Below, piece after piece: positions 1-38,120 of a stretch of DNA of 64,000 bases (positions are counted from its first letter, which is position 1; each line of letters begins with the position of its first letter). A program made the translations under genes and the position numbers. The notes below the pieces were generated by a model. The model saw only the letters and a program-made list of their open reading frames with translations, was not told the DNA's origin and ran no database searches. Source of the DNA: an uncultured Rickettsiales bacterium (GTDB lineage: Bacteria; Pseudomonadota; Alphaproteobacteria; Rickettsiales; RI-342); NCBI GenBank assembly GCA_964435165.1, contig CAYSXY010000001.1, positions 43,847 to 107,846 of the forward strand, read 5' to 3'.

Positions 1-462
1 GATGAAGCGGTGGAATTCTTCACCGCCATGCCGCTTATTCGAGAGAAATTGCTTGCATTGCAAGAAGTAGGGCTGGGCTATATCGGTATTGGTCAGTCCG
101 CCACGACCCTCTCAGGTGGGGAAGCGCAACGCATTAAACTTGCCAAGGAACTCTCGAAACGCGCAACTGGGCGCACGCTTTATATTCTGGATGAGCCGAC
201 CACCGGGCTGCATGCCGAGGATATTAATCGGCTTCTCAACGTCTTACACCGGCTGGTAGATAGTGGAAATACGATGGTGATTATTGAGCATAATCTGGAT
301 GTGATCAAAACGTCCGACTGGATTATCGATATCGGCCCGGGGGGAGGCTCCAAAGGCGGGCGGATTGTCGGCATCGGCACGCCGGAAGATATTGCCGAGA
401 TGAAAGACAGTATTACCGGGCATTATCTCAAACCCATGCTTGAGCGCAAAAAAGCAGCCTGA
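1..462 (+). CDS. uvrA: Excinuclease ABC subunit A, C-terminal fragment (gene continues upstream of the window)
   Basis: Frame open from nt 1. ABC signature [15 protein letters not shown], Walker [22 protein letters not shown], typical UvrA C-terminus. Confidence 0.92.
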
Positions 463-670
463 GCCTGAAGAATCGCCTTGGTGCGATGTTATGCTGTCGG
501 TTTTTGTGGGTTTATAGCCGTTTGCGATAATTTTGATACATGCTGCAAATGCCAGATTTTGCTGTGCTGCTCAATTCTCGTACGTTTGAGTACGATCATT
601 CCGCTGCTCGCAAAACTAACATTTTCGCTCATGTCTGAAAAATATTGCAATCGGCTATAGTGGAAGCGAG

Positions 671-1018
671 TTACACCGATTCGTCCATCATCGCTTCATG
701 ACGTGCCAAACGGCTAATTTCCAAGCGGGCATCATCCAGAATCGTATCCAGCATGGTGCGCACATATCGTTGAGGCACTCCGCGTGATGTAAGAGCCGGG
801 GTCATTTTGTCGACAAAACGATGAAATTCCTTCCCCTCCAACGCATCAAAATCGCCGCCATGCTGTTTCGCAAAGGCAAAAAAGTCCATGATGATTTCCC
901 GCACCAGCGCGGCATCAATCGATTGCCATTTCTCAGACAGCCGGTTCACAGATTGCAGGGAAAAGACAGTCGCACAAAATTCTTCGGGCGTTACTGCGCT
1001 CAGGGTATGCTGGTTCAT
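671..1018 (-). CDS. Hypothetical protein (start ambiguous, Met at 1018 or 1054)
   Basis: Only sizeable ORF here that does not depend on an implausible extension. No family recognised. Confidence 0.4.
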   Translation of the reverse strand: MNQHTLSAVTPEEFCATVFSLQSVNRLSEKWQSIDAALVREIIMDFFAFAKQHGGDFDALEGKEFHRFVDKMTPALTSRGVPQRYVRTMLDTILDDARLEISRLARHEAMMDESV

Positions 1019-1178
1019 CAAAGCCTCCGGGTTGTTTTTTGCCGTACAGCCCATTGTGAACGAAATGCGCTGCCTGTTTTTACCTTTCCGTCGCGCTCAT
1101 AACGGCGCTTTACATTATCATTACTACAATTTTCATATTTTGGAAGCATATTATCCATTCTGCCATGTTGATGGCGCA

Positions 1179-10412: not shown

Positions 10413-10805
10413 ATGTATCGCAAAACAACCGATGATATTACCGTAGAAGTCATGCCGGTCTATCTGGAAGAACATTCCGACCCGGACGAGCCACGCTATA
10501 TGTGGGCCTACAAGGTGGTGATTGCCAATGGTAGCAAACGCACCATCCAACTACTCAATCGCTATTGGCGCATCACGGATGCACATGGCCGCATTCGGGA
10601 AATACGCGGTGCAGGTGTGGTTGGCGAGCAGCCGGTTTTATCTCCCGGCGAGGCCTTTGAGTATAGTAGTTGGACGCCTTTGGATACGCCAAGCGGGTTT
10701 ATGGTCGGCCAATATCAAATGCAGGCCGAGGACGGTGACCTGTTCGATTTGGATATTCCGGCATTTGCCCTTGATCTGCCGGATAATCTCAATACCCGGC
10801 ATTGA
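10413..10805 (+). CDS. apaG: ApaG (DUF525) protein
   Basis: [20 protein letters not shown]....Y.W.Y.V.I.N, RYW.ITDA.G....V.G.GVVGEQP.L.PGE.F.Y.S pattern typical of ApaG. Confidence 0.88.
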
Positions 10806-12346
10806 TGAACACGCCCCTGGAGCTTGATGGCGAGAGCCTGACAATTGAGACGCTGTGGCGCACTGCGTCGCTTGCCGCTGATACCGACTCTTCCTGGCGC
10901 ATTCAGCTTGGTGATCGTGCTATCGCGAACCTAAAGCGGGCATCGCATTATCGTGAGCAACTGGCTGAGAGTGGCAGCACGGTCTATGGCATCAATACCG
11001 GCTTTGGTTATTTTGCCAATACACGCATCTCCAGCGAAGACATCACGGCATTACAGCAAAACATCATTCTGTCGCATTGCAGCGGCGTCGGCGCGCCGTT
11101 GTCGCGCCCGCAAACGCTTGCAATGTGGTTGATTCTGCTCAATTCAGCCTGCCGGGGGCATCGCGGCCTGCATCCTGACCATGCCTCGCGCATTGTTGAT
11201 ATCCTGAATCGAGGCATACTGGCCATTGTGCCATCACGCGGCAGTGTTGGGGCATCCGGAGACCTGGCGCCAATGGCACATGCCGTCGCCGCGGTGATCG
11301 GCCATGGCGACGTGACAATGCCGGATAAGGGTAAGTTCGTTACTCTTGCTGCCGATGAGGCACTGCGGCGGATCAGTTGCGAGCCACTGACGCTCGGCCC
11401 GAAAGAAGGGTTGTGCCTGATCAATGGCACCCAATTAACGGCAGCCCTTGCAGCGCAAGCATGGATGGAGCTTAACACGTTGCTTCACAGTGCCAATCGT
11501 ATTGTCGCCATGACCATTGAGGCTATGCGTGCCAGCCATGCGATTGTGATGCCGCAACTCATCGCCGAGCAGCATCATGAAAGCACCCGGCAATGTGCGG
11601 AGGAAATTCGGCAAACCCTTCAGGGCCCGACGGAAATCTCCAAAAGCCACGCGGAATGCGAGCGGGTGCAAGACCCCTACTCCATTCGCTGCGCTCCCCA
11701 AGTACATGGTGCGGTGTTGGAAGAGTTATTACAAAGCAAGCCGGTACTGGAAGATGAACTCAACGCCACGACCGATAACCCGATCTTATTCCCGGATGAT
11801 GATTTGGTGATCCATGGCGGCAATTTCCATGCAATTTATCCTGCGCGCATCTGTGACCGGCTTGCCTCGGCGGCTGCAACGCTTGCCTGCATTTCTGAGC
11901 GGCGTATCCATATGATGATGAAAAACAATAAAAGTGGCCTGCCCGATTTTCTCATCAAAGACGGCGGGTTGAATTCTGGCTTGATGATGGCACAAACCGC
12001 CGCCGCAGCACTGGTGAGTGAGTGCAAATCCTTAAGTTTTCCTGCCAGTGTCGATTCTATTTCCACCAATAATGATCAGGAAGATCATGTCTCAATGGGG
12101 CCGATTGCCGGCCATAAGGCGCTGCAGGTGATGCAATTGCTGCAACAGGTGCTTGCAGTAGAATTGATGGCGGCCTGCCAGGGGCTTGATTTACTCGCGC
12201 CACTGACAAGCTCACAGCGCATTGAAACCATGAAGAAACGTCTGCGGCAGGAGGTCGATTTCCTGGAGCAGGATCGCATGCTGGCACCGGATATCGACGC
12301 GGCAGCGCGCCTGATTGGCCAGGGCGACATATTAACAATACAATAA
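10805..12346 (+). CDS. hutH: Histidine ammonia-lyase (MIO-dependent aromatic amino acid lyase family)
   Basis: MIO-forming GSVGASGDLAPMAH, YGINTGFG, LSHCSGVG (Ser-His as in HAL rather than PAL/TAL), NPILFP. The TGATG overlap with apaG places the ATG at 10805. No hutU/hutI nearby. Confidence 0.8.
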   Translation: MNTPLELDGESLTIETLWRTASLAADTDSSWRIQLGDRAIANLKRASHYREQLAESGSTVYGINTGFGYFANTRISSEDITALQQNIILSHCSGVGAPLSRPQTLAMWLILLNSACRGHRGLHPDHASRIVDILNRGILAIVPSRGSVGASGDLAPMAHAVAAVIGHGDVTMPDKGKFVTLAADEALRRISCEPLTLGPKEGLCLINGTQLTAALAAQAWMELNTLLHSANRIVAMTIEAMRASHAIVMPQLIAEQHHESTRQCAEEIRQTLQGPTEISKSHAECERVQDPYSIRCAPQVHGAVLEELLQSKPVLEDELNATTDNPILFPDDDLVIHGGNFHAIYPARICDRLASAAATLACISERRIHMMMKNNKSGLPDFLIKDGGLNSGLMMAQTAAAALVSECKSLSFPASVDSISTNNDQEDHVSMGPIAGHKALQVMQLLQQVLAVELMAACQGLDLLAPLTSSQRIETMKKRLRQEVDFLEQDRMLAPDIDAAARLIGQGDILTIQ

Positions 12347-12426: not shown

Positions 12427-14094
12427 ATGTTTGATTATAATGAAGAGGCGATTATCGACACTATCTCCAGAGAATTGGAGATTTTGTGGGCAGCCCACCA
12501 CGCGGTGGGACTTGACGGATATATGTGCCTCTACACGCTGGCCAAGCAGGATTTATGGCGTAGCAAAGAAAAAGGCGTCATGTTCTGGTTCGCCCCGCAG
12601 GATACCAGAAAGATCATTAAGCGTATTATACGACTGTATAATAAAGGCAAACTGCCAAACTCTCCTCTATTTCTTGGGCCTGTGGTGCATCAGGCCGACG
12701 AAGAAGGAAATTTGAAGCCACTGGGCTCTGGCTTTGCCTGGGCTTCCTCACTCTGTCTCGGCATTACCGACCTCGAGCCCGACAGCGAAGAGCGTGTCAA
12801 ACATCTCAACGCGCTCACCTCGCCGATGCATCGCGGGGAAGATGATTATAACGGCCTGAAAAGTATTGCCTTCAGCAATCGTGTGTTGAAACCGTCAAAA
12901 GACGGCGCCGTTGAGGGTTGCTATGAACTCTATAACGTCGCCAATGTTCCCAGTGAGCGCTATTACCCTTTTTACATGCTGTCCGGCATCGGCTATCTCG
13001 GCAAAAACGGGATGTTTGGTCAGCCGGATTTTAACCAAATCATTAATTCTGCCAGCACACCTCCCCCCAAAGATGCGTCACCGAAGGACATAGTCACCTC
13101 GCTGGCTATTGATCCGCAAATTCTCCTCGATGCATCCTATTGCTGGGATCAGTACGACCATCATCATTCTCTTTTCAAACGGTTCGGCGTTGATCGCGAG
13201 AATATTGACACGAACTTACGCTATTATCGCATGTGCGGGAATGATTTTGAGCTGCTGGATGCCACCGGCGCCAAGCATGTGGATGCCGATACGGAGGTAA
13301 GTTTTGACTTTCTGGTGGAAGGCTGGATTCCTAAAGGCGCTGTCATTGTCATCGGTGCAACCGGGGGAACGGGTAAAAGTAGTCTCGCCCATAATCTCGC
13401 CGTCAAATGCTCGATCGATTACAAGGAAGGAGAGCCGCCTCCCATGTGGCTCGGCTCAAAAATCAACCCCGATAAATGTGGCGGGATATGTGTCTATTTC
13501 TCCGGTGAAGATGGCCCTGCTATCGTTCATTCACGCGCAAAAATTTACGACCCGGAAGGCCGTGCCCAGCGCCTCATGTTCCAACGCACCAATTTTGGCG
13601 AAGGCGTCAATTTCGACATGTTCATGGAACGGCTGCACAAAATGCCGGATGTTCCGCTCGTGGTCATCGATCCGGCACGGAAATATCTCAAAGGTGACGA
13701 AGAAAATGCCGAAATAGTCAGTGATTTTTTCGAGGCCATTGAGGAATTTGCCATTGAAAAAAATGCCGCATGCGTGGTGGTGCATCACCTGATTAAAAAC
13801 GCCAAGCCAGAACGCATTGTCGATATTTATGACATGCTTCGCGGCTCACAAGTGTTTATCGATCGTCCCCGCGTCGTTATAGGCATGATGCGTGATGGCC
13901 CACGAGTGATCGCCGGGCTGGCAAAAAACAATATCCCCGCACAAATGGGAATGGTTCAGGGAGAGCGCGTCTATAACCGCAATGCCGATAAGCTGGAGTT
14001 GGAATGGATTCCAGGTATCGAAGGCGTACGCAGCGACTTGCTGACTGATGAAGAGCTTCACAAGATCATGCTCAAGCCAGACGATCAATCATGA
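12427..14094 (+). CDS. Orphan RepA/AAA_25-like P-loop (RecA-fold) protein with an uncharacterised roughly 300-aa N-terminal domain
   Basis: Walker A VIGATGGTGKSSLAHNL, Walker B-like LVVIDPARKYL, VVVHHLIKN sensor-like motif as in plasmid/phage RepA-type helicase loaders. N-terminal half unrecognised. Confidence 0.65.
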   Translation: MFDYNEEAIIDTISRELEILWAAHHAVGLDGYMCLYTLAKQDLWRSKEKGVMFWFAPQDTRKIIKRIIRLYNKGKLPNSPLFLGPVVHQADEEGNLKPLGSGFAWASSLCLGITDLEPDSEERVKHLNALTSPMHRGEDDYNGLKSIAFSNRVLKPSKDGAVEGCYELYNVANVPSERYYPFYMLSGIGYLGKNGMFGQPDFNQIINSASTPPPKDASPKDIVTSLAIDPQILLDASYCWDQYDHHHSLFKRFGVDRENIDTNLRYYRMCGNDFELLDATGAKHVDADTEVSFDFLVEGWIPKGAVIVIGATGGTGKSSLAHNLAVKCSIDYKEGEPPPMWLGSKINPDKCGGICVYFSGEDGPAIVHSRAKIYDPEGRAQRLMFQRTNFGEGVNFDMFMERLHKMPDVPLVVIDPARKYLKGDEENAEIVSDFFEAIEEFAIEKNAACVVVHHLIKNAKPERIVDIYDMLRGSQVFIDRPRVVIGMMRDGPRVIAGLAKNNIPAQMGMVQGERVYNRNADKLELEWIPGIEGVRSDLLTDEELHKIMLKPDDQS

Positions 14095-14096
14095 GG

Positions 14097-15221
14097 TTAA
14101 GCTGCTTTCGACTCTGAGCCGGTTGTTTGTTCGATATTCAACACCTCAGCCACATGCAGCGTTCGGGTTGGGAAGGCAATTTCAGCGCCATGCTCTCCGA
14201 TAATCTCGCTGATCTTCAGCAACACATCCTGCTTGATTTCATGAAAGCGCACCCATTGCGTGGTATGAGTGAAGGTATAGACAAAGAAATCCACCGAGGA
14301 AGCATTAAACGCATTAAAGTTCACAATCATGGTTTGTGATTCATCAATCTCTTCGTGCGCTTTGAGCATGGTTGTGACTGCTTCGGTAATCGCTTGCATT
14401 TTGTCAATATCGGCATAGCGAATGCCGATAGTCTCATAGATACGGCGATGTGTCATTCGTGACGGATTTTCCACCGCAATCTGGGTGAAGACGGAATTGG
14501 GCACATAGAGTGGTCGTTTATCGAAGGTGCGGATAATCGTCAGGCGCCAGCCGATATCTTCTACCGTGCCCTCAATTTGTTTATCCGGCGAGCGAATCCA
14601 GTCACCCACCTGAAAAGGCCGATCAAAATAGATCATCAAGGCCCCAAAGAAGTTAGCCAGCAGATCCTTGGCGGCGAAGCCGACGGCAATGCCACCGATA
14701 CCACCAAATGCCAGCACCCCTTCGATACTGAAACCGAGCGTTTGCAGCGAGACCAGAACCGCTGCGATGATGACGGTCGCACGAAGAATATTGGACACGG
14801 CATTAGCCGTTGTGACATCAAATTCTTTTCCCTGCTCTTCAACGCGGTGGCGAAAATTGCGTTCTCCGCTTTTAATAAAGCGCAGGAGAAACCAGGCCAT
14901 TGCAGCGATGACACCCACATCGCGAATAGGCCCGGCACCGGAGAAAATAGGCGCGCCGGTAGCGCGATAGATAATATCTGCCGCAAAACCGATACCCACA
15001 ATCCAGATCGTGGTGCGCACAGGCCGCCGCGCCGCATCGATGAGCGCGTCGTCCCAAAAGTTGGCTGTTTTCTCCAGTTTTGTATGTAATTTTTTGAGTA
15101 TACGGTTGGCAAAAAAGCTGGCCAGCTGGCTCAGAAAAATAACCACCGTAATCTGGATAATCCAATCACTGTGCTGGCCAAGATTCAGTGTTTCTCGCAG
15201 GTAAGTGACAAAGTCTTGCAT
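14097..15221 (-). CDS. Mechanosensitive ion channel, MscS family
   Basis: Several N-terminal TM helices, pore-lining GGIGGIAVGFAAKDLLANFFG, DRPFQVGDWI beta-domain motif. Confidence 0.88.
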   Translation of the reverse strand: MQDFVTYLRETLNLGQHSDWIIQITVVIFLSQLASFFANRILKKLHTKLEKTANFWDDALIDAARRPVRTTIWIVGIGFAADIIYRATGAPIFSGAGPIRDVGVIAAMAWFLLRFIKSGERNFRHRVEEQGKEFDVTTANAVSNILRATVIIAAVLVSLQTLGFSIEGVLAFGGIGGIAVGFAAKDLLANFFGALMIYFDRPFQVGDWIRSPDKQIEGTVEDIGWRLTIIRTFDKRPLYVPNSVFTQIAVENPSRMTHRRIYETIGIRYADIDKMQAITEAVTTMLKAHEEIDESQTMIVNFNAFNASSVDFFVYTFTHTTQWVRFHEIKQDVLLKISEIIGEHGAEIAFPTRTLHVAEVLNIEQTTGSESKAA

Positions 15222-15254: not shown

Positions 15255-17459
15255 TCACGCTGGTTCGCTGGCGGTCTCATAGCGATTATGCGTCTCGCCC
15301 AGCAACTCCCAATCTTCACGACCGCGATGGTTATCAATGTAATTGACCAGCGCGGCGACCGGCGCGCGATTATACATCACGCCGATATCATCCATCATCA
15401 CACGCAGGGCTTCATCAATTGTCGCTCCGGGACGGTAGGCACGCTCGCTGACTAATGCCACGAAACTATTAGCCACAATCACCACTTGCGCTGGCGGCAG
15501 AATATCATCACCTTTGAGTCCAAGCGGTCCATTGCCATCTGCCCTCTCCTGACTTTGACGAAGAGTGTCAATCACAGGCCCATCAAATTCAATCGCTGAG
15601 AGCAAATCCGCCGTTGCCTGAATGGAATTGCGAATACGTGCCCGCCCTTCTTCATCCAGCACTTCTTTTTGCGTCAATAAGGATTCCGGTACCAGAATTT
15701 TTCCCAGATTCATCAAACGGCCTGCCGTTTCTGCCGTTTCAACCATCAGGGATACCAACCCCATTTCACGCGCCACATGGCCGGCAACAGCAGCCACTTT
15801 GCGCGAATGCGAGGCGGCATACGGATCGCGCTTATCAACAAGCGAGACCATACTTTCCACCAAATGGTGCAAAATGCGTTCGCGACGCTCTTTTTCATGC
15901 ACAAACCTGGTCTGGTCTTTTTCAATGATGAGGGTGCCGGGCGTACGCTGATTGGTTTGCGGAAGCGGGATATTCTCCAGTGGAATATGTGTGGATTCAA
16001 AAATATCCTCGCCTTCCCCAGCCCTTTCAGAAGGCACACGATGAGTGACCGTATGGGTGTTATTATCCGCCAATGCCGCCCGGCTGGCCTTCAGATAAGC
16101 GTCTGCCTTGCTGGCCCCCAGCACGGCGGTGATGGTTTTTCCGATCATGCGTCGCGGCTCCATCCGCGCACGCTCCGCTGCCACCCGGTTGGCATAGCGG
16201 TAGTAATGCTCGTTATCGATAATGAAAATAGCATTGGGTGTGGCGGAGGTAATCAATTCAAACAACTCATCCTGCTTTTCGATGCGGTTGGCCAATGCCC
16301 GATAATGGGCCGCGGCGTGTCGGGCTCGCACGGCCGTCGCGTGGCGCCACACGGCCAACATACTGACCGAGACGAGCAGCACAGCTAATAAATAGCTCCC
16401 TACCATCCATTTGCCACGCTGATCACTCTCTGCCAGCACTTCCGCGGCATCAATTTTCAGCATCATTGTCCAATTGCTATAGTTGACAGGACGGCTGGTC
16501 ATCAGCACCAGTTGATTGCGATAATCGGTGCGCAGGGCAAAAGGTGTATCCATCGTCAGCGCGTGACTGGCGGCGAGTTCAGGCGTTGATGCATCCATGC
16601 GTAGTTCAAACGCATTGTAACCACCAAGCAGCACGGGTGACATATATTCAATCTGGCTCTCAGCAACGCGACGTAGCAATAATGTTTCGACCGTCGCAAC
16701 ATCCAGCGGCTGCTCTGTCAGCATATCAAAAAAGGCGGCACTCAATGGCAACACCGCTAAAGCATAGCCTACTGGTTGACTCTCTCCGGCATCCTGCTGC
16801 ACGGCCGTCACCGGCTGCATCAGACCGATCATCCACCCATCCTCTTCATGCTTGAAAGGACCAAAGAGCAGTGACTCCGTCAATTCACGCGATTGCGCAA
16901 AGGTGCGCAGCACGGGCGGGAGTTGAAATCCTCTGGAGCTGGCTAAGATAGTGTGCGAGCGATTGATGAGCGCGATCCCACCTGCCGGTGGTCCCTCCAC
17001 CCCGGCCTTCATGGGCATCGCGGTGTTTGCGGCCGATTGATGCAGCGCTGTCGCTCTGAGCACCGTTGCATTAAGTAAGTTACGCATAAACCCGCTTTGC
17101 GCCATCATTGCCGGTGCTTCTGACGGTGCATTGGCGGTCGCTTGTTCGGTGATGAACAATTGCACGGACGGGTTGGTCGTAATGCCGTCCAGCATATCAA
17201 ACTGTTTATCCAGCCAGCGATTAATCTCTGCCACCTGATGATCCGCCATCAGGCCAAGGCGAATATGCCATTGGCGCATATCGCGCTCTTTTTCTTCATT
17301 AATATAGGAAAGCATCAGAATAAAGCCCAGCAATGCAAGCGCTGTCCAGCCTAGTGCCAGAATCAACCAGCCATAGCGCAGCCAGCGCCGGCGTGCTTGC
17401 TGCGAGGTGCGCGGCTGCATTCTGTTCTGTTCGCTCGAAACGGTGGTTGCGTCTCCCAT
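15255..17459 (-). CDS. Transmembrane sensor: large periplasmic domain, PAS, degenerate (predicted inactive) HD-GYP domain
   Basis: Two TM segments flank a roughly 300-aa periplasmic region. PAS-like IFIIDNEHYYRYAN. HD-GYP scaffold DKRDPYAASHSRKV retained, but HD is MN (15708-15713), HHE is SQE and GYP is GPL (15522-15554), and the D of the final motif is N. Confidence 0.8.
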   Translation of the reverse strand: MGDATTVSSEQNRMQPRTSQQARRRWLRYGWLILALGWTALALLGFILMLSYINEEKERDMRQWHIRLGLMADHQVAEINRWLDKQFDMLDGITTNPSVQLFITEQATANAPSEAPAMMAQSGFMRNLLNATVLRATALHQSAANTAMPMKAGVEGPPAGGIALINRSHTILASSRGFQLPPVLRTFAQSRELTESLLFGPFKHEEDGWMIGLMQPVTAVQQDAGESQPVGYALAVLPLSAAFFDMLTEQPLDVATVETLLLRRVAESQIEYMSPVLLGGYNAFELRMDASTPELAASHALTMDTPFALRTDYRNQLVLMTSRPVNYSNWTMMLKIDAAEVLAESDQRGKWMVGSYLLAVLLVSVSMLAVWRHATAVRARHAAAHYRALANRIEKQDELFELITSATPNAIFIIDNEHYYRYANRVAAERARMEPRRMIGKTITAVLGASKADAYLKASRAALADNNTHTVTHRVPSERAGEGEDIFESTHIPLENIPLPQTNQRTPGTLIIEKDQTRFVHEKERRERILHHLVESMVSLVDKRDPYAASHSRKVAAVAGHVAREMGLVSLMVETAETAGRLMNLGKILVPESLLTQKEVLDEEGRARIRNSIQATADLLSAIEFDGPVIDTLRQSQERADGNGPLGLKGDDILPPAQVVIVANSFVALVSERAYRPGATIDEALRVMMDDIGVMYNRAPVAALVNYIDNHRGREDWELLGETHNRYETASEPA

Positions 17460-17595
17460 AGTGGTGGATTATCGCGCTGTGGCCTGCCTTGTCCAGCGAA
17501 AAGCCGCACATGCTTATCGACGCAGGAAAGATTGTCAGCACTGCGGCGAATATGCTACGCATGAGCGTCTTTCATTCCATAGAGGCCGTGGCCTG

Positions 17596-18222
17596 GTGCG
17601 TACGTTACACTTCATCCTTGTGATCGCCATTCTTATCGTTAGTTCAGCGCCGGCAAGGGCGTTGTTTGATTACACGGAAACGCCATCGCATGACCTCAGT
17701 CTCTTTCCCAAATGGCTCGGCGTGTTGGAGCGCGATTCCAAACATCGTGGCCTGATGCGGCAGGAATGCCAGGAGACATCCCCCTACTGCCTTGACCAGC
17801 GCTGGCAGGATTTTCTGCTTTCATTACAAGGCCAATCGCTGGATGAGCAACTACGGCAGGTGAATCGCTATCACAACCAGGCTGATTATATTCTGGATAT
17901 GGTCAATTGGGGGGTGTTGGATTACTGGGCGACACCCTATGAATTTTTCAACCGTGACGGTGATTGCGAAGATTATGCCATTGCCAAATATATGAGCCTC
18001 AAGCAACTGGGCGTACCGCCTGAGCAGATGCGCGTGGTGGTACTGCAGGACACCAACCTGAACATTATCCATTCGGTTCTGGCTGTCTATGCGGAGGAGA
18101 CGGTGTATATTCTCGATAACCAGATTGAGCAGGTGATCACGGACCGCGACATTCGGCATTACCTGCCGATTTATTCCATCAATGAAGGCGGCTGGTGGCG
18201 GCATTTGCCGCGGAACGGATAG
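17596..18222 (+). CDS. Periplasmic transglutaminase-like cysteine protease (BTLCP, LapG-like)
   Basis: GTG at 17596 gives signal peptide VRTLHFILVIAILIVSSAPARA. Catalytic-triad context GDCEDYAIAKY (Cys codon 17965-17967), IIHSVLAVY, ILDNQ. Confidence 0.8.
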   Translation: MRTLHFILVIAILIVSSAPARALFDYTETPSHDLSLFPKWLGVLERDSKHRGLMRQECQETSPYCLDQRWQDFLLSLQGQSLDEQLRQVNRYHNQADYILDMVNWGVLDYWATPYEFFNRDGDCEDYAIAKYMSLKQLGVPPEQMRVVVLQDTNLNIIHSVLAVYAEETVYILDNQIEQVITDRDIRHYLPIYSINEGGWWRHLPRNG

Positions 18223-18408
18223 ACAGATTTGAACTGAAGGTTTTCTGCGCCCTCTCACCCTGCGGCCTTAGTCGCTGGCGCGAAGCAGCAGTTTTAAGAA
18301 TGAGGTGGCCCCGCGGCTTAGGCGGGGCCATGCTCATGACGACAGAGCATTCAGGTAGCTGCGCTATTCACATTTTCTGTGAATGGCGATGGCGGATCAC
18401 AACAGCAC

Positions 18409-20103
18409 TTACTGCTCGAGATCGCTCTCAGTATTACATTCCAGCCCATCTTCGCTCACCGCGAGTGGGTCCTGCAACACAGCCGTTCCGCAATTGACAT
18501 CGGCGCCTGTACCGGTGTCACCCGCGGCCGGGGCCAATGCACCAAGCTGATCAGCCGGGATATTGCCTAGATCCTGCGTTGCGCTGAGGTCGATATTGAC
18601 GTCAAACACGCCCACTTCATAGCTTTCAAAGCTGGTATCCTGCTCAATCGACTGCTCAGAGAAGGAGATGAGCGGACGGTTGAGATCGTTCGGGCCGAAT
18701 TCTACATCACTGGGGTCTACCGTGCCGGTTGGCGTTGGCGCGGGCGCCGGTGTGGGCGCAGGCGTCGGCTCCGGTGTTGGTTCACCTTCCGGTGGTAGTG
18801 ATACTGGCGGGTTAGGTTCCGGCGTTGGGAACTCAACCGGCGGCTGACTTACCGGCGGATTTGACGGTTCCGGCGTCGGCAATGGCGGCGCTGTCGAAAC
18901 CGGTGGGTTTGTCGGCTCCGGCGTGGTTGGTTCCGGTGTCGTTGGTTCCGGTGTGGTTGGCTCCAGCGTGGTCGGTTCCGGTGTGGTTGGCTCCGGTGTG
19001 GTTGGCTCCGGTGTGGTCGGCTCAATCACAATCTCACCACTTGGATCTTCCACCAAATATAATGCATTGATTTCACTTGTGATATTCGCCGGACGGCTAA
19101 TAGGTATATCGAAGGTGTTATCGACAGCATTAACGGCTAAGATAACTGTACCACCAGTTTTATGGTGTGTATTGGCATTAATCCGTCCATTAACCGTCAC
19201 ACCATGATCTGCAGAGGTGTGTGCATCCGATACTTTGTTGCCATCATTCAGGAATGCAAACGGCACACCATGTCCGGGTGCCGGATCATCATACGCACCT
19301 TGAAATGAGCGGGGTCTTTTACCAGCATCAACCGCGATTATGTTATCACCATCCAGGCCAATAGCAAAGGTACGCCCAGACGCCAAAATGACATTACCGA
19401 AATCTTTCTGGTTTGCGTTTAATTGACCGCCTGATTGCAACTCCACCTCTGGAGCTACAAGGGCAATCACTGCATTATCCACAATATTGGTATTAACTTG
19501 ACCGGAAACGCTGATTTTTCCGCCGGAAGCGGGAATATCAAAGTAAAAGAGGTTGTCTGTAGCCGCTACAAACTCGTCAACATCAATATCAGCAGCTGTA
19601 GCCAAAAATCCTGCACTGTAAATGGAGCCGCCAACATGCAAGCCTTTGGGACTAACAATAATAACACGCCCGTCAGCCCGTAGCGTACCATTAATTTGCG
19701 GTACTGTAGCGCTGTTAATTACACGATTCAAAACGATTGATGACGGTGCAGGTTGATTAAATTCCACTTCTCTGCCTGCATTAATATCAAAGCTGTCCCA
19801 ATCTATCGCAGCACGATCTGATAAGTCATAAACATGCTTGGTGGATGAACTCTGACCAGGAGCTGTATTTAGCACTGCAGAGCCTGCTCGCACCGCATTC
19901 ATAACTGGTAAATCCGCTGCACTGGCAAAGCGGGCGGCTTCAAATGTCACCATACCGGCAATCGCCACAGCGGAGAGGCAGCGCTGCACCGGGCTGTGAC
20001 GGCGGCTGAGCGCAGTGGAGCTGGCATAGCCATGCATGATGGCGTTGTTATGGTTGTTTTTTGCTGTGGTGCGCATGGTTATACTCCTCTGACGATCACC
20101 CAA
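18409..20103 (-). CDS. Short two-partner-secretion exoprotein (TpsA) with a Pro/Thr linker and an acidic C-terminus carrying PAAG plus two Cys
   Basis: TPS domain IDWDSFDINAGREVEFNQPAPSSIVLNRV...INGTLRADGRVIIVSPKGLHVG, then a beta-helix-like region, (PEPTT)n, and PAAG at 18520-18531. Cys codons at 18490-18492 and 18436-18438. Confidence 0.85.
   Translation of the reverse strand: MGDRQRSITMRTTAKNNHNNAIMHGYASSTALSRRHSPVQRCLSAVAIAGMVTFEAARFASAADLPVMNAVRAGSAVLNTAPGQSSSTKHVYDLSDRAAIDWDSFDINAGREVEFNQPAPSSIVLNRVINSATVPQINGTLRADGRVIIVSPKGLHVGGSIYSAGFLATAADIDVDEFVAATDNLFYFDIPASGGKISVSGQVNTNIVDNAVIALVAPEVELQSGGQLNANQKDFGNVILASGRTFAIGLDGDNIIAVDAGKRPRSFQGAYDDPAPGHGVPFAFLNDGNKVSDAHTSADHGVTVNGRINANTHHKTGGTVILAVNAVDNTFDIPISRPANITSEINALYLVEDPSGEIVIEPTTPEPTTPEPTTPEPTTLEPTTPEPTTPEPTTPEPTNPPVSTAPPLPTPEPSNPPVSQPPVEFPTPEPNPPVSLPPEGEPTPEPTPAPTPAPAPTPTGTVDPSDVEFGPNDLNRPLISFSEQSIEQDTSFESYEVGVFDVNIDLSATQDLGNIPADQLGALAPAAGDTGTGADVNCGTAVLQDPLAVSEDGLECNTESDLEQ
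18905..19025 (-). repeat. In-frame 15-bp tandem repeat encoding (T)PEPT units, about 8 copies
   Basis: ggttggctccggtgt-type units repeated head to tail. Protein reads EPTTPEPTTPEPTTPEPTTLEPTTPEPTTPEPTTPEPT. Confidence 0.9.
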
Positions 20104-20250: not shown

Positions 20251-21933
20251 CTAGAAGCGACGGACCAGGCCAACAAACAGCCGTGGCTGATCGCCGTCAT
20301 TGCGTTCGGCGCTGACATTACGCGTCAGTGGCACGGCCAGTTCAACAAAGCCGGTGGTTTGGCTGTTGACATTGAAGCGCACGCCCGGACCGAACGAGGC
20401 AAGCGTATCGCGCCCACTCACACCTGGCAGGCCGTCTTCTTCCCATACCGCTCCAAAATCATAATAGAGATAAGCCTGGTAAGAACTGAGATATTCATAA
20501 TCGGTTGCACGACCATAGCGTAGCTCACCGCGGAAGGCGACACCATGATCGCCGGTGATTTCCGAAGGATCATAAGCCGAGCCGAACAGCGAGCCCCCTA
20601 CCCCGAACTCCTCTGACGAGAGTAACGGATCGAACGCATACTGCCCGGTGACACTCGTGAAGAGTGAGAAGTCACGCGGCAGATCCTGCAGGCGGGTGAT
20701 GGTCGCGTTAATGCTGGTAAAGTCGGCTTCGCCATCAGGCCGCGAGCGGTTGAGGCCGTCATCGCTGGCGCCAAACGCATCAATCCCCTGGCGTAACTGC
20801 ATATCCAGCAGGTTGATGCCGCGCCAATCATCGGCAACATCGAGATTGAAGCCGGCAAAGAGCGTACGCACACTGTCATCATAGAGTTCGATGCCGGAGA
20901 TATCGGTTTCCGTATCGACCATCTCAAACCCGACACGGGCAAACACATTATACGTACGAGAGCGCACAAACGGATGCTCGACAGCCACTTCAAAACGGGT
21001 GCTTTCCCCTTCGATATTCAATGGCTCAAGGAACGAGCCTGGCTCGGTCATGCTGTAGGCGCCACGCAGTTCTATCCGCGTGCCTTCATTGCCAATCTGC
21101 TGCTCATGTGCCACATCAATAAAGCGCAGTTCATCCACTTCTGAGGTGAGGATGCCACGCACTGTTGTGCGCTCATACATGCCGAGAATCGAGTTGGCAG
21201 CGGCGATGCCCGTCAACTGGTAAGGCCCAAGCAGACGGCTGCCGCGATTATCGGCCTGAATCGCCCCTTCATAAGTATCATGCCCGACGAGCAACACGAG
21301 GCTGGATGCACCAGCTTCAATCTGCGAGGGCTGGAGAATGCCGCGTGCGGTCACGCCCGGCAGATCATCGGCCAACAGCAAGTAACGCTCCAGTGTTTTG
21401 ACATTGAGCGGCTTGCTTTCCTGAATTTTCGCGGCATAGGCGCGCAGTAATTCTTCACTGCCCTTGATCTCGCCCTGAATATTCACATCGCTGATGTGAC
21501 CTTCGGCAATTTGCAATGTAACGACACCATCTTTAATGCGCTGCGGGCCGATAAAGGCACGCGAGAGGATATATCCATCACGGCGATATTTTGCCGTAAT
21601 GTTGCGTGCCAACTGATTAATCTCACGCATGGTCACACGCTTGCCGAGATAATCACTCACTTCCATTTTCAATATGTCATCGTCATAGACACTGTTGCCC
21701 TCAAACATCATATCATTGAGGACAAAGCTGACTTCCTGAATGGCGGCGTCACCAGCAGTGGTTGCGCCTTCCTGTTCAATCACTGCATCCTGCCTCGGCG
21801 TTGGAAGACTGCGCGGCAAGATGTCGCGTTGCACCCGTTCCGGCGCGGCGGTGGGGGGCACGATTTGCGCCCAGCTGGCAGAAGAAGTAGTGATGAGTAA
21901 AGCGGAAGCAAGGGCAAAAGAAAGCGAGCGCAT
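20251..21933 (-). CDS. TpsB outer-membrane transporter (ShlB/FhaC/HecB family)
   Basis: Signal peptide, POTRA-like N-terminal region (FEGNSVYDDD...LARNITAKYRRDGYILSRAFI), C-terminal beta-barrel ending in an aromatic residue (LVRRF). Immediately upstream of the TpsA gene. Confidence 0.9.
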   Translation of the reverse strand: MRSLSFALASALLITTSSASWAQIVPPTAAPERVQRDILPRSLPTPRQDAVIEQEGATTAGDAAIQEVSFVLNDMMFEGNSVYDDDILKMEVSDYLGKRVTMREINQLARNITAKYRRDGYILSRAFIGPQRIKDGVVTLQIAEGHISDVNIQGEIKGSEELLRAYAAKIQESKPLNVKTLERYLLLADDLPGVTARGILQPSQIEAGASSLVLLVGHDTYEGAIQADNRGSRLLGPYQLTGIAAANSILGMYERTTVRGILTSEVDELRFIDVAHEQQIGNEGTRIELRGAYSMTEPGSFLEPLNIEGESTRFEVAVEHPFVRSRTYNVFARVGFEMVDTETDISGIELYDDSVRTLFAGFNLDVADDWRGINLLDMQLRQGIDAFGASDDGLNRSRPDGEADFTSINATITRLQDLPRDFSLFTSVTGQYAFDPLLSSEEFGVGGSLFGSAYDPSEITGDHGVAFRGELRYGRATDYEYLSSYQAYLYYDFGAVWEEDGLPGVSGRDTLASFGPGVRFNVNSQTTGFVELAVPLTRNVSAERNDGDQPRLFVGLVRRF

Positions 21934-22288: not shown

Positions 22289-23572
22289 ATGCGCTTTGCC
22301 CACTCTCTCACCTTTGCCTGCCTCGCCAGCACCGCTTTTGTAGCTGTGGCCATAATGCCCACTCATTCGCTGGCAGCCGATAATAAGGAATCGATTGCCG
22401 ATTTGCGCAAAGAGTTGCAGGTGCAACGTGGTCGGATTGAAGTGCAGCAGCGCGCCCTGGAGACACAACTTCGGGCACTGGAGAAAAGCCAGCAACGCCT
22501 TAATAAGCAGATTAGGGATATTGATAAGTTAGAGAAACGTCTCAGCAAAGCGCTTGAAACCGCTCTGCCGGAAGAGATGGAAGCCATTGAACAAGCGGAT
22601 AGCGCTGTACCTGATCAAGTGGGAACGGAGCGTCGCACAGAAGAGATGGAAAAACCACAGGCGGTAGAGGTTGCGACTCTGGCAGATGAAGGGGGCGTCT
22701 TGCTCTCTAAAGGACAGCTTATTATTGACCCGTCGCTCGAATATTCCCGCGCTTCCACCTTGCGAGTCGCGGTGGAGGGCTTCACCATTGTACCGGCATT
22801 GAATATTGGCTCGTTTGATATTTCGCAGATCGACCGTGACACGTACAGCGCATCGCTTGGCTTGCGCTATGGCCTGACCAACCGCCTGGAGATCAGCACC
22901 CGAGTGCCGTATGTGTATCGTAATGACAGCACGCTCAGTCGGCCAATTGGCGAAGGCGTTGGCGTTGAGCGCCTGACAGATGTAAGTGGTGATGGTATTG
23001 GCGATTTGGAGTTCGGCGCTAACTATCAGTTAACCAATGGCGAAGGCGGCTGGCCCTTCCTGGTCGCAAATTTCCGCGTGAAATCGAACACGGGCACCAA
23101 TCCGTTTGAAGTGAATATTGACCCCGATACCGGGCTGCAGACAGAATTGCCGACCGGTTCCGGCTTCTGGGCTCTCTCGCCAAGCATCACCGCCATCTTC
23201 CCCTCCGACCCAGTCGTGTTTTTCGGTAATCTTGGGTACTTATATAATATGCCCAATGACTTTGGTGGCAATACGGGTGAGATTGATCCGGGCGACAGTA
23301 TCAGCTTCAGCTTTGGTATGGGCCTGGGTATTAATGATCGCACGTCATTCAATGTGGGCTATGGTCACAGCGTGGTGTTTGAAACCACACAGAATGGTAA
23401 TACATTACCCACCTCCGATGTGCTGCAGGTTGGTTCTCTCGACCTTGGTTTTTCTTATCAGGTCAATGACTCGCAGAATCTCAACTTTACCGTCAGCGCT
23501 GGCCTGACGGATGATGCACCTGATGTGCGCCTGGTGTTCCGCGCACCTTTCAGCCTCAACCTGCATGAATAG
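22289..23572 (+). CDS. Outer-membrane beta-barrel protein with N-terminal coiled coil (FapF-like architecture)
   Basis: Signal peptide ending in SLA, about 55 aa of heptad-like sequence (IADLRKELQVQRGRIEVQQRALETQLRALEKSQQRLNKQIRDIDKLEKRL), an acidic linker, then alternating-hydrophobic beta-strand region with GIGDLEFGANYQL. The CDS is secure; the functional call is architectural only. Confidence 0.55.
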   Translation: MRFAHSLTFACLASTAFVAVAIMPTHSLAADNKESIADLRKELQVQRGRIEVQQRALETQLRALEKSQQRLNKQIRDIDKLEKRLSKALETALPEEMEAIEQADSAVPDQVGTERRTEEMEKPQAVEVATLADEGGVLLSKGQLIIDPSLEYSRASTLRVAVEGFTIVPALNIGSFDISQIDRDTYSASLGLRYGLTNRLEISTRVPYVYRNDSTLSRPIGEGVGVERLTDVSGDGIGDLEFGANYQLTNGEGGWPFLVANFRVKSNTGTNPFEVNIDPDTGLQTELPTGSGFWALSPSITAIFPSDPVVFFGNLGYLYNMPNDFGGNTGEIDPGDSISFSFGMGLGINDRTSFNVGYGHSVVFETTQNGNTLPTSDVLQVGSLDLGFSYQVNDSQNLNFTVSAGLTDDAPDVRLVFRAPFSLNLHE

Positions 23573-23745: not shown

Positions 23746-23774
23746 TGTTTGAAAAAGGCTATTATGCATAGTGC
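23746..23774 (+). promoter_or_regulatory. Candidate sigma-70-type promoter for the repeat-protein gene
   Basis: TTACTT-17 nt-TATTAT about 90 nt upstream of the ATG at 23866, in an AT-rich 290-bp spacer. Sequence pattern only. Confidence 0.25.
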
Positions 23775-23865
23775 GCAGGTAAAGGCGTTTTTGAATATTG
23801 ACTATTCGTTCATTTTTAAATTCGTCGCAAATAAATCTCATAAATATCCGTTCTGGAGGATTACA

Positions 23866-25986
23866 ATGAATTTTAAAACTCTTCTTGGCACAACGTCTGC
23901 CGTTGCTCTGTTGGCTTCCGTAGCCAGCACCCCGGCTTACGCTGTGGACGATGCCATTGATGGCAACAAGAACGACAACAACACCGTTGACCAGTCGCAA
24001 GACACCAACGATGCGTCGTTTAATGATAACAGCGAACTGACCGATAACTCGGACAACTCGATTGATACCGATAATTCAATCGATACCGATAACTCGGACA
24101 ATTCGGATAACTCGATCGATACCGCTGATTCGTACAATGCTGACAACACGAACAATTCGGACAACTCCGTAGACACCGATGTTGACAACAGCAACAACGC
24201 TGATAACTCGGATAATTCGGATAATTCGATCGACACCGCTGATTCGTACAACGATCAGTCCGATAACTCGGTTGATAATGACTACGATTTCGACAATGAT
24301 GTTGATACTGATGTTGACAACAGCAACAACTCCGACAACTCGGACAACAGCTCTGTTGACACCGACAATTCCGACAATTCGGATAACTCGATCGATACCG
24401 CTGATTCGTACAACACGGATAACACGAACAATGCCGATAACTCGGACAATTCGGACAATTCCGTAGATACCGATACCGACAATTCCGACAACTCGGACAA
24501 CTCGGACAATTCGGATAACTCGATCGATACCGCTGATTCGTACAACGATCAGTCCGATAACACCGATAACTCGGATAACTCGATCGATACCGATACCGAC
24601 AATTCGAACAACTCCGATAACTCGGACAATTCGGATAACTCGATCGATACCGCTGATTCGTACAACGATCAGTCCGACAATTCGAACAACTCGGACAATT
24701 CGGACAACAGCTCCATTGATACCGACAATTCGAACAACTCCGATAATTCGGACAATTCGGACAACTCCATCGATACCGCTGATTCGTACAACGACAGCTC
24801 CGATAACTCGATTGATACCGATACGGACAACTCGATCGACAACGACTATTCGTATGACAATGATACGGATACCGATGTGGATAACTCCGACAATTCGGAC
24901 AATTCGGTTTACACCGAAACCAACACGGACAACTCGGACAACAGCCTGGTGACCACAACCACCACGCAAACCGATTCGTTCAACACCGATACGGATACCG
25001 ATGTTGATAATTCCGATAACTCGGATAACTCGATCGATACCGCTGATTCCTACAACACGGATAACAGCAATAACTCGGACAATTCGAACAATTCCGACAA
25101 CTCCAACAACTCGGATAACTCGAACAACTCCGACAACTCGATCGATACCGATACGGACAATTCGGACAATTCGACCACGGATATCGCTGATTCCTACAAT
25201 ACGGATAACAGCGACAACTCCGATAACTCGGTGAATGATTCGTACAATACCGACAACACGAACAACTCGGATAACTCCGACAATTCGGACAACTCGGTAT
25301 ACACCGAAACCAACACCGACAATTCCGATAACTCGGACAACTCGGACAACTCGACCACCGATATTGCTGATTCCTACAACACGGACAACAGCAACAACTC
25401 GGACAACTCGAACAACTCCGATAACTCCGATAATTCCGACAACTCGGTGAACGATTCCTACAACACCGCTGATTCGAACAACACTGACAACTCCGATAAC
25501 TCGGACAACTCAGTGAATGATTCGAACAATACTGAAGGTTCGTACAACACCACTGATAACTCCGATAACTCGGACAACAGTGACAGCTCGGTGAATGATT
25601 CCAATAACACCGACGATTCGTACAACGTTTCGGATTCGGATAACGACAACAACTCGTACAACACGACTGATTCGAACAACGATAACAGCGATAACAGCAT
25701 GAATGATAATCGCACCATCGTTGACAACAGCGTGAACGTGACGAGCGGTGATGTTCTGTTCCAGGGTAACAGCCAAGTTACCGCTTCGGTTCTGAACTCG
25801 ACCGTTGCTAACTCGACCGTGAACTGGGATCTGCAAGATGTGACCATTCAAGGTAACCGTCTGCAAGGTGAAGCCTTCAAAGGTTCCAGCGGTATCAACG
25901 CAGCGAACATGAACACCGGCGTGAACTCCAATGTTCAACAGTCGATTTCGGTTCGTGCGACCATCAACAATGGCGTAACCCCGTAA
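23866..25986 (+). CDS. Secreted 706-aa D/N/S/T-rich repeat protein with a C-terminal Q/N/G-rich module (candidate major fibre subunit, FapC-like)
   Basis: GGAGGA RBS 6 nt upstream of the ATG at 23866. Signal peptide MNFKTLLGTTSAVALLASVASTPAYA. About 563 aa of DNS-type repeats. C-terminus GNRLQGEAFKGSSGINAANMNTGVNSNVQQSISV is shared with the two downstream small proteins. Confidence 0.85.
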   Translation: MNFKTLLGTTSAVALLASVASTPAYAVDDAIDGNKNDNNTVDQSQDTNDASFNDNSELTDNSDNSIDTDNSIDTDNSDNSDNSIDTADSYNADNTNNSDNSVDTDVDNSNNADNSDNSDNSIDTADSYNDQSDNSVDNDYDFDNDVDTDVDNSNNSDNSDNSSVDTDNSDNSDNSIDTADSYNTDNTNNADNSDNSDNSVDTDTDNSDNSDNSDNSDNSIDTADSYNDQSDNTDNSDNSIDTDTDNSNNSDNSDNSDNSIDTADSYNDQSDNSNNSDNSDNSSIDTDNSNNSDNSDNSDNSIDTADSYNDSSDNSIDTDTDNSIDNDYSYDNDTDTDVDNSDNSDNSVYTETNTDNSDNSLVTTTTTQTDSFNTDTDTDVDNSDNSDNSIDTADSYNTDNSNNSDNSNNSDNSNNSDNSNNSDNSIDTDTDNSDNSTTDIADSYNTDNSDNSDNSVNDSYNTDNTNNSDNSDNSDNSVYTETNTDNSDNSDNSDNSTTDIADSYNTDNSNNSDNSNNSDNSDNSDNSVNDSYNTADSNNTDNSDNSDNSVNDSNNTEGSYNTTDNSDNSDNSDSSVNDSNNTDDSYNVSDSDNDNNSYNTTDSNNDNSDNSMNDNRTIVDNSVNVTSGDVLFQGNSQVTASVLNSTVANSTVNWDLQDVTIQGNRLQGEAFKGSSGINAANMNTGVNSNVQQSISVRATINNGVTP
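24022..25710 (+). repeat. Coding low-complexity array with 9-nt (Asp/Asn-Asn-Ser) periodicity and higher-order ADSYN punctuation
   Basis: gataactcg, gacaattcg and gacaactcc units repeated. Nine ADSYN-containing motifs by my count (IDTADSYN x7, TDIADSYN x2). Synonymous codon alternation breaks up perfect DNA identity. Confidence 0.92.
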
Positions 25987-38109: not shown

Positions 38110-38120
38110 GGCTATTTTCC

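Follow-up and report, generated by a model that had tools for sequence, protein, structure and literature searches.

A predicted DvhD/DvhG-type receptor and protease pair in an uncultured Rickettsiales bacterium, and its apparent coupling to two-partner secretion

A stretch of 64,000 nucleotides from an uncultured Rickettsiales bacterium (assembly GCA_964435165.1, contig CAYSXY010000001.1, positions 43,847 to 107,846; the whole stretch is called the window here) encodes an inner-membrane receptor with a degenerate HD-GYP domain and, transcribed divergently from it, a secreted cysteine protease of the BTLCP family, with a TpsA-type exoprotein and its TpsB transporter, the components of a two-partner secretion (TPS) system, next to them (Table 1). 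Judged by homology along their length, the receptor and the protease are the DvhD/DvhG system that is already characterised in Desulfovibrio vulgaris, and we consider it probable that the locus as a whole is an inside-out switch of this type which releases an adhesin-like TpsA. An earlier note on this DNA had proposed that the pair follows the logic of LapD/LapG but is built on a different cyclic di-GMP (c-di-GMP) fold. That proposal is well supported by homology, and the mechanism has been shown experimentally for DvhD/DvhG; the further statement that such an arrangement was undescribed falls, since DvhD and DvhG were published in 2024 and 2026 (PMC10990149, PMC13090378). The adjacent two-partner secretion genes, the likely source of the substrate, were absent from the earlier note. 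Beyond the literature, we report the size of the receptor family, its centre of gravity in the Alphaproteobacteria and the loss of the GYP tyrosine in most of its members, together with an apparent link, by way of a conserved tail that carries a LAPAAG motif and a cysteine loop, between the DvhDG module and a type Vb exoprotein. These new aspects are recombinations of known parts.

Homology to DvhD

The receptor has two hydrophobic stretches (residues ~27-53 and ~352-372), and the roughly 300 residues between them gave no match in a Pfam scan; PAS_4 and HD_5 matches follow, which agrees with the architecture of two transmembrane segments, periplasmic domain, PAS domain and C-terminal HD-GYP domain given in the earlier note. 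An AlphaFold2 model of residues 55-350 (predicted local distance difference test 77, predicted template modelling score 0.74) has as its top Foldseek match in the PDB 9rc2, 'DvhD, periplasmic domain' (E 9e-10, template modelling score 0.75), with the runner-up dCache domains at E >= 1.5e-6, about three orders worse. The long N-terminal helix of the modelled dCache domain is interrupted (H2-40, H43-54), likewise in the described DvhD. For the cytoplasmic part the best PDB sequence match of the receptor is 9rc0, the PAS/HD-GYP portion of DvhD (E 6.8e-35, residues 393-713), and against 9rbz, DvhD's HD-GYP domain, the E value is 8e-30 with the whole receptor and 2.5e-29 with the HD-GYP domain; both entries stand far ahead of any active HD-GYP protein. 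Full-length DvhD, in the sequence given in the supplement of Font et al. with two letters corrected from the PDB alignment, aligns colinearly with the receptor in BLASTP over 627 residues at 24% identity (E 1e-41). The receptor has no Pfam match to HAMP, GGDEF, EAL or LapD_MoxY_N and is thus not a LapD of the GGDEF-EAL kind.

Karbelkar et al. (PNAS 2024) described DvhD (DVU1020) as a protein of the inner membrane that combines a periplasmic and a PAS domain with an HD-GYP domain for which inactivity was predicted; it binds c-di-GMP with a dissociation constant (Kd) of 322 nM and controls the BTLCP DvhG (PMC10990149). Font et al. (Nat Commun 2026) determined structures of the DvhD dCache domain, of the PAS/HD-GYP portion and of the HD-GYP domain with c-di-GMP bound, and located two sites for c-di-GMP, one canonical and one bridging (PMC13090378).

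Lost metal ligands and retained nucleotide contacts

We aligned the receptor HD-GYP domain by HMMER to the solved structures of PmGH (4mcw), V-cGAP3 (5z7c), PA4781 (4r8z) and DvhD (9rbz). Seven of the eight metal ligands of PmGH are replaced in the receptor: E185 by Y547, H221/D222 by M583/N584, H250 by N611 or S612 (a one-residue ambiguity between alignments), H276/H277 by S636/Q637 and D305 by N664, with H189 alone kept, as H551. The GYP motif reads G-PL, its tyrosine being deleted. The alignment to active HD-GYP proteins thereby upholds the changes given in the earlier note (HD to MN, HHE to SQE, GYP to GPL and the last D to N), and the domain lacks the intact HD, HH(E) and D ligands and the GYP motif that mark an active phosphodiesterase. 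From its sequence we take it to be a pseudoenzyme that has lost its metal ligands. It is very improbable that the domain is instead an active c-di-GMP phosphodiesterase, an ordinary signalling enzyme that happens to lie beside an unrelated protease. The Pfam matches to HD_5 and HD, a partial NCBIfam match to a c-di-GMP phosphodiesterase family and the retention of the first histidine (H551) and of glutamate E638 would suit such an enzyme, but the seven ligands have given way to residues unable to coordinate metal in the same manner, these substitutions are conserved family-wide, and DvhD, the closest characterised homologue and one with the same class of substitutions, hydrolysed no c-di-GMP with any metal tested (PMC13090378).

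The residues that contact the nucleotide in DvhD have fared differently from the metal ligands. The DvhD mutations R650A, P567T and Y652A/R653A impaired stabilisation by c-di-GMP (PMC13090378), and in our alignment R650, P567 and Y652/R653 correspond to R673, P591 and Y675/R676 of the receptor, and L601 and L669 are the counterparts of L577 and M646. Taken together, the contact positions that are kept or conservatively replaced are Y547, L601, L669, R673, Y675, R676, P591, R544 and D691 (the alignment at D691 is ambiguous); three DvhD contacts, Y621 (deleted), K582 (R606 in the receptor) and R569 (S593), are not kept. Because the mutationally defined residues of DvhD are kept, the receptor HD-GYP domain is likely to bind c-di-GMP.

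The protease

The open reading frame (ORF) of the protease was listed from 17407, and the sole plausible start codon in frame is the GTG at 17596, with which the start codons of receptor and protease lie exactly 136 bp apart, in keeping with the divergent arrangement at about that distance noted earlier. The protein from this start opens with MRTLHFILVIAILIVSSAPARA, with a predicted cut before LFDY, which we judged by eye to be a signal peptide (residues 1-22) with an AxA site; on this reading the protease is predicted to be exported to the periplasm. The motifs by which it was first recognised as a secreted BTLCP (GDCEDYA, IHSVLAVY and ILDNQ) are present, the last two within IIHSVLAVY and YILDNQ, and the family match to Peptidase_C93 agrees (Table 1). 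Its triad C124/H159/D174 aligns to that of DvhG, and C124 is flanked by the calcium-site residues D123 and E125 (D316/E318 in DvhG); the triad and the calcium motif are both needed for the activity of DvhG, which cleaves at [T/A/P]AAG (PMC13090378). The natural sites of DvhG, in DvhA and DVU1545, read ELLPAAGPG (core LLPAAGPG). The protease of the window therefore looks active, and calcium-dependent cleavage between the alanines of [T/A/P]AAG is predicted for it.

Its affinity is with DvhG, to whose BTLCP domain it is 43% identical over 190 residues (E 3e-48), rather than with LapG of Pseudomonas fluorescens (35% over 133 residues); at 103 bits against a cut-off of 320 it falls below the NCBIfam LapG equivalog and is not a strict LapG orthologue. 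DvhG has a transmembrane anchor and a 180-residue linker, whereas the protease of the window has a cleavable signal peptide; signal peptides are also the rule among DvhG orthologues (PMC13090378).

A TpsA with a LAPAAG and cysteine tail

Directly beyond the protease gene and convergent with it lies the gene of a TpsA-type exoprotein, with tpsB upstream and co-directional. The TpsA is 564 residues long, or 555 by the gene caller, which puts the start 9 codons downstream. Its C-terminal tail reads LGALAPAAGDTGTGADVNCGTAVLQDPLAVSEDGLECNTESDLEQ, in which PAAG within LAPAAG, at residues 525-528 and 37 residues before the end, is the only [T/A/P]AAG of the protein, and the following C538 and C556 are the only cysteines outside the leader. 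On the strength of this tail, and by analogy with the substrates of related proteases, the neighbouring TpsA is most likely the substrate of the protease, and its two cysteines probably form a disulfide.

TpsA and TpsB genes flank the receptor and protease pair not only in the window but in three further loci, namely L085 (in the order TpsA of 1194 residues, TpsB, BTLCP, receptor), L088 (receptor, BTLCP, TpsB, TpsA of 1109 residues) and L248 (the order of L088, with a TpsA of 1229 residues); L001 has the TpsB alone, represented by its N-terminus at the contig end. All four complete TpsAs beside such pairs share the ending (Q)L(G)xLAPAAG(G/D), in many cases present twice, and a C-x(n)-C loop comes after it. 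A protein search with the TpsA of the window gave one weak match and was swamped by Pro-rich repeats. A scan of GTDB for QLGxLAPAAGG returned 39 matches, seven of which are in plausible coding frames, all from metagenome-assembled genomes (MAGs) that are alphaproteobacterial or labelled Rickettsiales. Each of these seven sits within the last 28-60 residues of a TpsA-like ORF; a TPS domain or a neighbouring TpsB was detected for three, the other four being too truncated to tell, and a cysteine pair is present in five of the six complete tails. The other in-frame matches fall in Arg/Gly-rich, non-coding-looking ORFs of non-alphaproteobacterial genomes, mostly GC-rich Actinomycetota and Myxococcota, and the remaining ones in no ORF of at least 60 residues.

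Two features of the tails recur among the relatives. Tandem sites in two or three copies (LAPAAGG, LEPSAGG, LAPSAGG) often precede the cysteine loop, as in the TpsAs of L085 (160..3744, minus strand), L088 (9574..12903, plus strand) and L248 (7433..11122, plus strand) and at the ORF ends of L218, L229, L233 and L234; and the loop itself commonly takes the form CGNNFL(D/G)xGF...C.

We found no report in the literature in which DvhDG is linked to type Vb secretion. From the neighbourhood tables of Font et al. the words filamentous, hemagglutinin, hemolysin, activation, ShlB, POTRA and autotransporter are all absent, so that a pairing of DvhDG with two-partner secretion is apparently unreported there.

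The receptor family and its gene pairing

A word-indexed protein search gave four full-length relatives of the receptor, at 29-37% identity, and tblastn with the single receptor protein against the GTDB representatives gave no relative. A tiny family of four relatives was considered on this basis and rejected as an artefact of search sensitivity, as an exhaustive profile search of 1.84 billion cluster representatives retrieved at least 150 full-length proteins of ~700 residues, all at E <= 1e-155. On a hidden Markov model (HMM) of the clade of the window receptor, DvhD scores 353 bits (E 1e-109) and the listed members of the clade score more than 535 bits, which places the D. vulgaris protein as an outlier within a far larger family. 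With at least 150 clusters at 50% identity over the full length, a LapD/LapG-like switch built on HD-GYP is not confined to sulfate reducers.

We aligned 154 family members, taken from the matches listed and represented at no more than 50% identity. The D of the HD motif is Asn in 147 (Asp in one) and the last D is Asn in 147, the first histidine is kept in 135, and the positions of R673 and R676 are each Arg in 153, with an aromatic residue or His at position 675 in 152. K587 is Lys in 145, L601 is Leu in 144 and P591 is Pro in 141. The G[YFW]P motif, by comparison, survives in 26. The pattern amounts to a natural mutagenesis table for a pseudoenzyme of the c-di-GMP-sensing HD-GYP kind, in which the arginines and the proline are kept, all metal ligands are lost and the GYP tyrosine has usually gone too. 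The loop around that tyrosine is missing altogether (RQS--LTKNP) in P0002 (L001, 1310..3391), in P0131 and in the receptor of L088 (4827..6926, minus strand); either sensing can do without the loop or it works in another way in these members.

We scanned the species representatives in GTDB for DNA that could encode AGxLMN[LI]GKxx[VI]P, using a degenerate pattern, which gave at least 119 loci, nearly all of them from Alphaproteobacteria by their record labels. The labels include Rhodospirillales, Sneathiella, Kiloniellales, Emcibacter, Hwanghaeella, Marivibrio and 'Rickettsiales' MAGs among the matches listed, to which the counts of receptor loci that follow also refer. The host itself is an alphaproteobacterium that stands apart from the GTDB representatives, among which its DXS reaches at best 72% identity. 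The list of 78 DvhD homologues of Font et al. already includes Sneathiella, Kiloniella, Pelagibius and Fodinicurvata (PMC13090378, supplement), and Sneathiella litorea and S. chungangensis are found both there and in our scan; the alphaproteobacterial branch has therefore been published in that supplement, in a paper whose text centres on Desulfovibrionales (PMC13090378).

Six-frame ORFs of the GTDB loci were scored with purpose-built HMMs, and 101 loci encode a family-like receptor. At least 900 nt are visible on the 5' side of the receptor in 67 of these, and a BTLCP gene lies there in 57 (85%), divergent in 50 and on the same strand in seven. A Peptidase_C93 gene likewise adjoins the receptor in all four relatives from the word-indexed search, and each of the five relatives of the protease examined (48-59% identity) has a PAS_4/HD_5 protein of 684-722 residues encoded beside it, which makes nine metagenomic contexts out of nine with the pairing. 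A survey for co-occurrence of BTLCP and degenerate HD-GYP genes had been suggested when the pair was first noticed, and its outcome is that the pairing is not due to chance.

The ten receptors of the 67 that have no BTLCP gene on the 5' side, in spite of 1-5.5 kb of flank, are those of L103, L111, L114, L138, L141, L152, L156, L170, L184 and L197. Their protease may be encoded elsewhere, or they may have another output.

Proposed mechanism and alternatives

The sequences themselves show the domain architecture, the loss of the metal ligands and its conservation, the retention of the mutationally defined nucleotide-site residues, an intact protease active site, the conserved gene pairing and a conserved candidate tail module in the adjacent TpsA. 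For the binding of the nucleotide, the direction of regulation, the contact between receptor and protease, the disulfide and the substrate we draw on the homologues, and suggest the following as the probable working of the locus. The receptor would be a dimer in the inner membrane whose catalytically dead HD-GYP domain senses c-di-GMP. At high c-di-GMP the nucleotide would bind the HD-GYP dimer and the stalk helices would splay, and the signal would pass from the stalk through the PAS domain and the transmembrane helices to the periplasmic dCache domain, which in this state would restrain the secreted BTLCP protease; a fall in c-di-GMP would free it. TpsA, exported through TpsB, would be held at the surface by its periplasmic C-terminal tail with the disulfide-bonded cysteine loop, and a cut that parts the two alanines of LAPAAG would take this plug away and release TpsA, comparable to the action of LapG on CdrA.

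Several points speak against this scheme, those on sensing being the following. The GYP tyrosine, which as Y621 of DvhD hydrogen-bonds the phosphodiester of c-di-GMP (PMC13090378), is deleted in the receptor of the window and its motif is lost in 128 of the 154 relatives, and in a few receptors of the family the whole loop is gone. K582 of DvhD corresponds to R606 in the receptor, a position that varies across the family, so the affinity or specificity for the ligand may differ. How DvhD restrains DvhG is still to be settled in D. vulgaris too (PMC13090378), and the alphaproteobacterial clade of receptors is known from sequence alone.

The receptor could be imagined to work outside-in, with a periplasmic small molecule bound by the dCache domain and the dead HD-GYP domain serving, in place of nucleotide sensing, as a protein-interaction output towards a cytoplasmic partner, or to sense another nucleotide such as 3'3'-cyclic GMP-AMP (3'3'-cGAMP) or pGpG. 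We give this little credence. Domains of the dCache kind are usually ligand sensors, all Foldseek matches other than DvhD are sensor domains of chemoreceptors or kinases, the PAS domain could add a further input, the receptor lacks the GYP tyrosine, a c-di-GMP contact in DvhD, and DvhD itself also binds 3'3'-cGAMP with a Kd of about 0.5 uM (PMC13090378). Against these stand the near invariance across the family of the equivalents of R650, Y652/R653 and P567, a conserved pseudoenzyme pocket that speaks for a bound ligand, the close pairing with a protease of the periplasm, which fits control from the inside out, and the DvhD dCache structure, in which no ligand was found (PMC13090378).

On the side of the substrate, three more points count against release of TpsA by this switch. 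TPS genes are present in three of the 26 GTDB loci that extend at least 2.5 kb beyond the protease (among the matches listed), tail-bearing TpsA genes occur without an adjoining pair in L234 and L241, and the TpsA of the window is short (~560 residues), with an adhesin role only presumed. The linkage to two-partner secretion is, from the first two of these, typical of the sub-lineage of the window and not of the whole family.

A different substrate has also to be weighed, one encoded elsewhere, be it a type 1-secreted adhesin like LapA or DvhA or a capsule target as for HvyA of Caulobacter, with TpsA and TpsB as bystanders. The 23 of 26 loci with no TPS genes beside the pair would fit it. The lapDG genes of P. 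aeruginosa are not known to be linked to the gene of their substrate, nor is cdrAB known to lie beside lapDG. Type 1 secretion system (T1SS) genes dominate the neighbourhoods of the 78 DvhD homologues of Font et al. (PMC13090378), and the alphaproteobacterial BTLCP HvyA is reported to act on capsulation and not on an adhesin (PMC4241560). We nevertheless think a substrate elsewhere unlikely for the window, where no T1SS genes and no giant ORF of the RTX type were seen among the ORFs examined. The position of the single [T/A/P]AAG of TpsA so close to its end and just ahead of the only two cysteines of its mature region, the tail common to all four complete TpsAs beside such pairs, and the confinement of every plausible-frame QLGxLAPAAGG match in GTDB to the end of a TpsA-like ORF tell against it as well.

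Release of TpsA thus remains our preferred reading for the window, and for the broader generalisation we lean, with some reserve, to the view that a DvhD/DvhG-type module controls a type Vb-secreted surface protein, and not a type 1-secreted RTX adhesin, through a conserved C-terminal anchor-and-release tail of the form 'QLGxLAPAAGG ... C-x(n)-C'. If true, this would unite the DvhD receptor and the CdrA-like C-terminal release, so far described in separate bacteria, and the tail motif could be used to find protease-released TPS cargo. If the TpsA tail is the substrate, one protease logic would have been joined to two unrelated secretion routes in two receptor families, and the LAPAAG motif with its cysteine loop would be a simple sequence marker of regulated surface proteins in uncultured alphaproteobacteria.

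Comparison with known systems

The closest known system is DvhD/DvhG (DVU1020/DVU1019, also BfsD/BfsG) of Desulfovibrio (Nitratidesulfovibrio) vulgaris Hildenborough. It shares with the locus of the window a receptor of the order transmembrane segment, dCache, transmembrane segment, PAS and dead HD-GYP, which gives the best PDB match for each domain (9rc2, 9rc0, 9rbz), has lost HD, HH and the last D, and has residues R650, Y652, R653, P567 and L577 whose equivalents are kept; the adjoining BTLCP has the same triad and calcium motif as its 43% identical counterpart, and its substrate motif is xPAAG. The two receptors differ in sequence (24% identity overall, 35% in the HD-GYP domain) and in the residues that have taken the place of the ligands, which are MN and SQ in the window and SQ and MN in DvhD, with the GYP tyrosine deleted in the former. 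The host of the window is alphaproteobacterial and the neighbouring secretion system is of type Vb (TpsA/TpsB), whereas DvhD/DvhG goes with a T1SS and an N-terminal retention module.

LapD/LapG/LapA of P. fluorescens resembles the locus in having a degenerate sensor derived from c-di-GMP metabolism, an inside-out signal and a BTLCP that cuts the di-alanine of [T/A/P]AAG in an adhesin, but LapD is unrelated to the receptor of the window. For the cargo the nearest parallel is CdrA/CdrB of P. aeruginosa. LapG is reported to release the TPS adhesin CdrA by a cut close to the C-terminal end, ahead of what has been proposed as a 'cysteine hook' (PMC11898600, PMC4694147); the proposed cleavage site is Ala2105/Ala2106 (PMC4694147), and the downstream cysteines are proposed to anchor CdrA in CdrB (PMC11898600). 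To that extent CdrA/CdrB and the TpsA/TpsB of the window are alike in a TpsA cargo with a TpsB pore and a C-terminal di-alanine site followed by cysteines. CdrA is, however, under canonical LapD/LapG control and not that of a DvhD-type receptor, and it is a protein of 220 kDa with 81-residue repeats, against ~60 kDa and a Pro-rich stalk for the TpsA of the window. Bd1817 (3tm8) also has an HD-GYP fold with an altered GYP motif; it is a weak match (E 5e-4) and differs in being soluble, in keeping its metal site and in having no link to a BTLCP.

Features of the locus and other observations

The coordinates of the locus are collected in Table 1. The region between the receptor and protease genes holds a single sigma-70-like match, at 17495..17468 on the minus strand. 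The scan of the locus for promoters and terminators was overall not above chance, for which reason the hairpin between the convergent tpsA and protease genes is a weak candidate for a terminator.

Table 1. Features of the receptor, protease and two-partner secretion locus, in window coordinates
Feature	Position	Strand	Remarks
DvhD-like receptor gene	15255..17459	(-)	734 residues; two transmembrane segments (TM1, TM2), periplasmic dCache, PAS, degenerate HD-GYP
Degenerate HD-GYP domain, residues 537-691	15387..15851	(-)	Pfam HD_5, E 2e-25
Cytoplasmic PAS domain, residues 406-496	15972..16244	(-)	Pfam PAS_4, E 3e-9; aligns to DvhD PAS in 9rc0
TM2 of the receptor	16344..16406	(-)	Hydrophobic segment
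Periplasmic dCache domain, residues 55-350	16410..17297	(-)	AlphaFold2 model and Foldseek
TM1 of the receptor	17301..17381	(-)	Hydrophobic segment
Divergent intergenic region, 136 bp	17460..17595	none	Presumed site of both promoters
DvhG/LapG-type BTLCP cysteine protease	17596..18222	(+)	208 residues; Pfam Peptidase_C93, E 8e-19
GC-rich hairpin, possible terminator between convergent tpsA and BTLCP genes	18306..18330	(-)	9-bp stem, 8 GC pairs; weak
TpsA-type exoprotein	18409..20103	(-)	555-564 residues; Pfam TPS, E 4e-15, and TIGR01901; TPS domain, Pro-rich TPEPT stalk, C-terminal tail
TpsA C-terminal tail, LAPAAGDTGTGADVNCGTAVLQDPLAVSEDGLECNTESDLEQ	18412..18537	(-)	[T/A/P]AAG site at 18520..18531
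TpsB outer-membrane transporter (ShlB/FhaC barrel)	20251..21933	(-)	Pfam POTRA_2, E 2e-19, and ShlB, E 1e-19

The neighbourhoods of some relatives contain further genes. In L003 a TPR_Slam-like gene (1..1134, minus strand; N-terminal TPR, then a beta-barrel by eye), which is not a TpsB, adjoins the protease and receptor pair, a hint that yet another, third route of surface-protein export may be tied to the switch. In the MAGs labelled Rickettsiales, genes for SapC, FtsW/RodA and PBP2 follow the module and are conserved (L088, 12903..14636; L248, 11233..14910), and L249 (18198..20627) also has a PAS-GGDEF gene 4 kb from the receptor and protease pair.

Elsewhere in the window, a gene at 23749..25986 on the plus strand encodes a secreted protein of ~700 residues with the signal peptide MNFKTLLGTTSAVALLASVASTPAYA, which consists almost entirely of 'DNSDNS(I/V)DT' repeats of Asp, Asn, Ser and Thr; it has no Pfam match and shows a strong local skew in composition. 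This protein was considered as a second substrate of the protease and rejected, as no [T/A/P]AAG was seen in its translation. Upstream of it, at 22289..23572 on the plus strand, lies a gene for an outer-membrane barrel of the Phenol_MetA_deg family. On the other side of the locus, the gene for a 555-residue AAA_25 protein (a RecA/RepA-like ATPase; 12427..14094, plus strand) is flanked by those for a histidine ammonia-lyase-like protein (10802..12346) and an MscS channel (14097..15221), and may be what is left of a mobile element. The window also contains AddA-type and NtrY genes, and along a run of Mrp/Nuo-type antiporter subunit genes (Proton_antipo_M) at 33619..40201 on the plus strand the AT skew stays at about -0.2 to -0.25.

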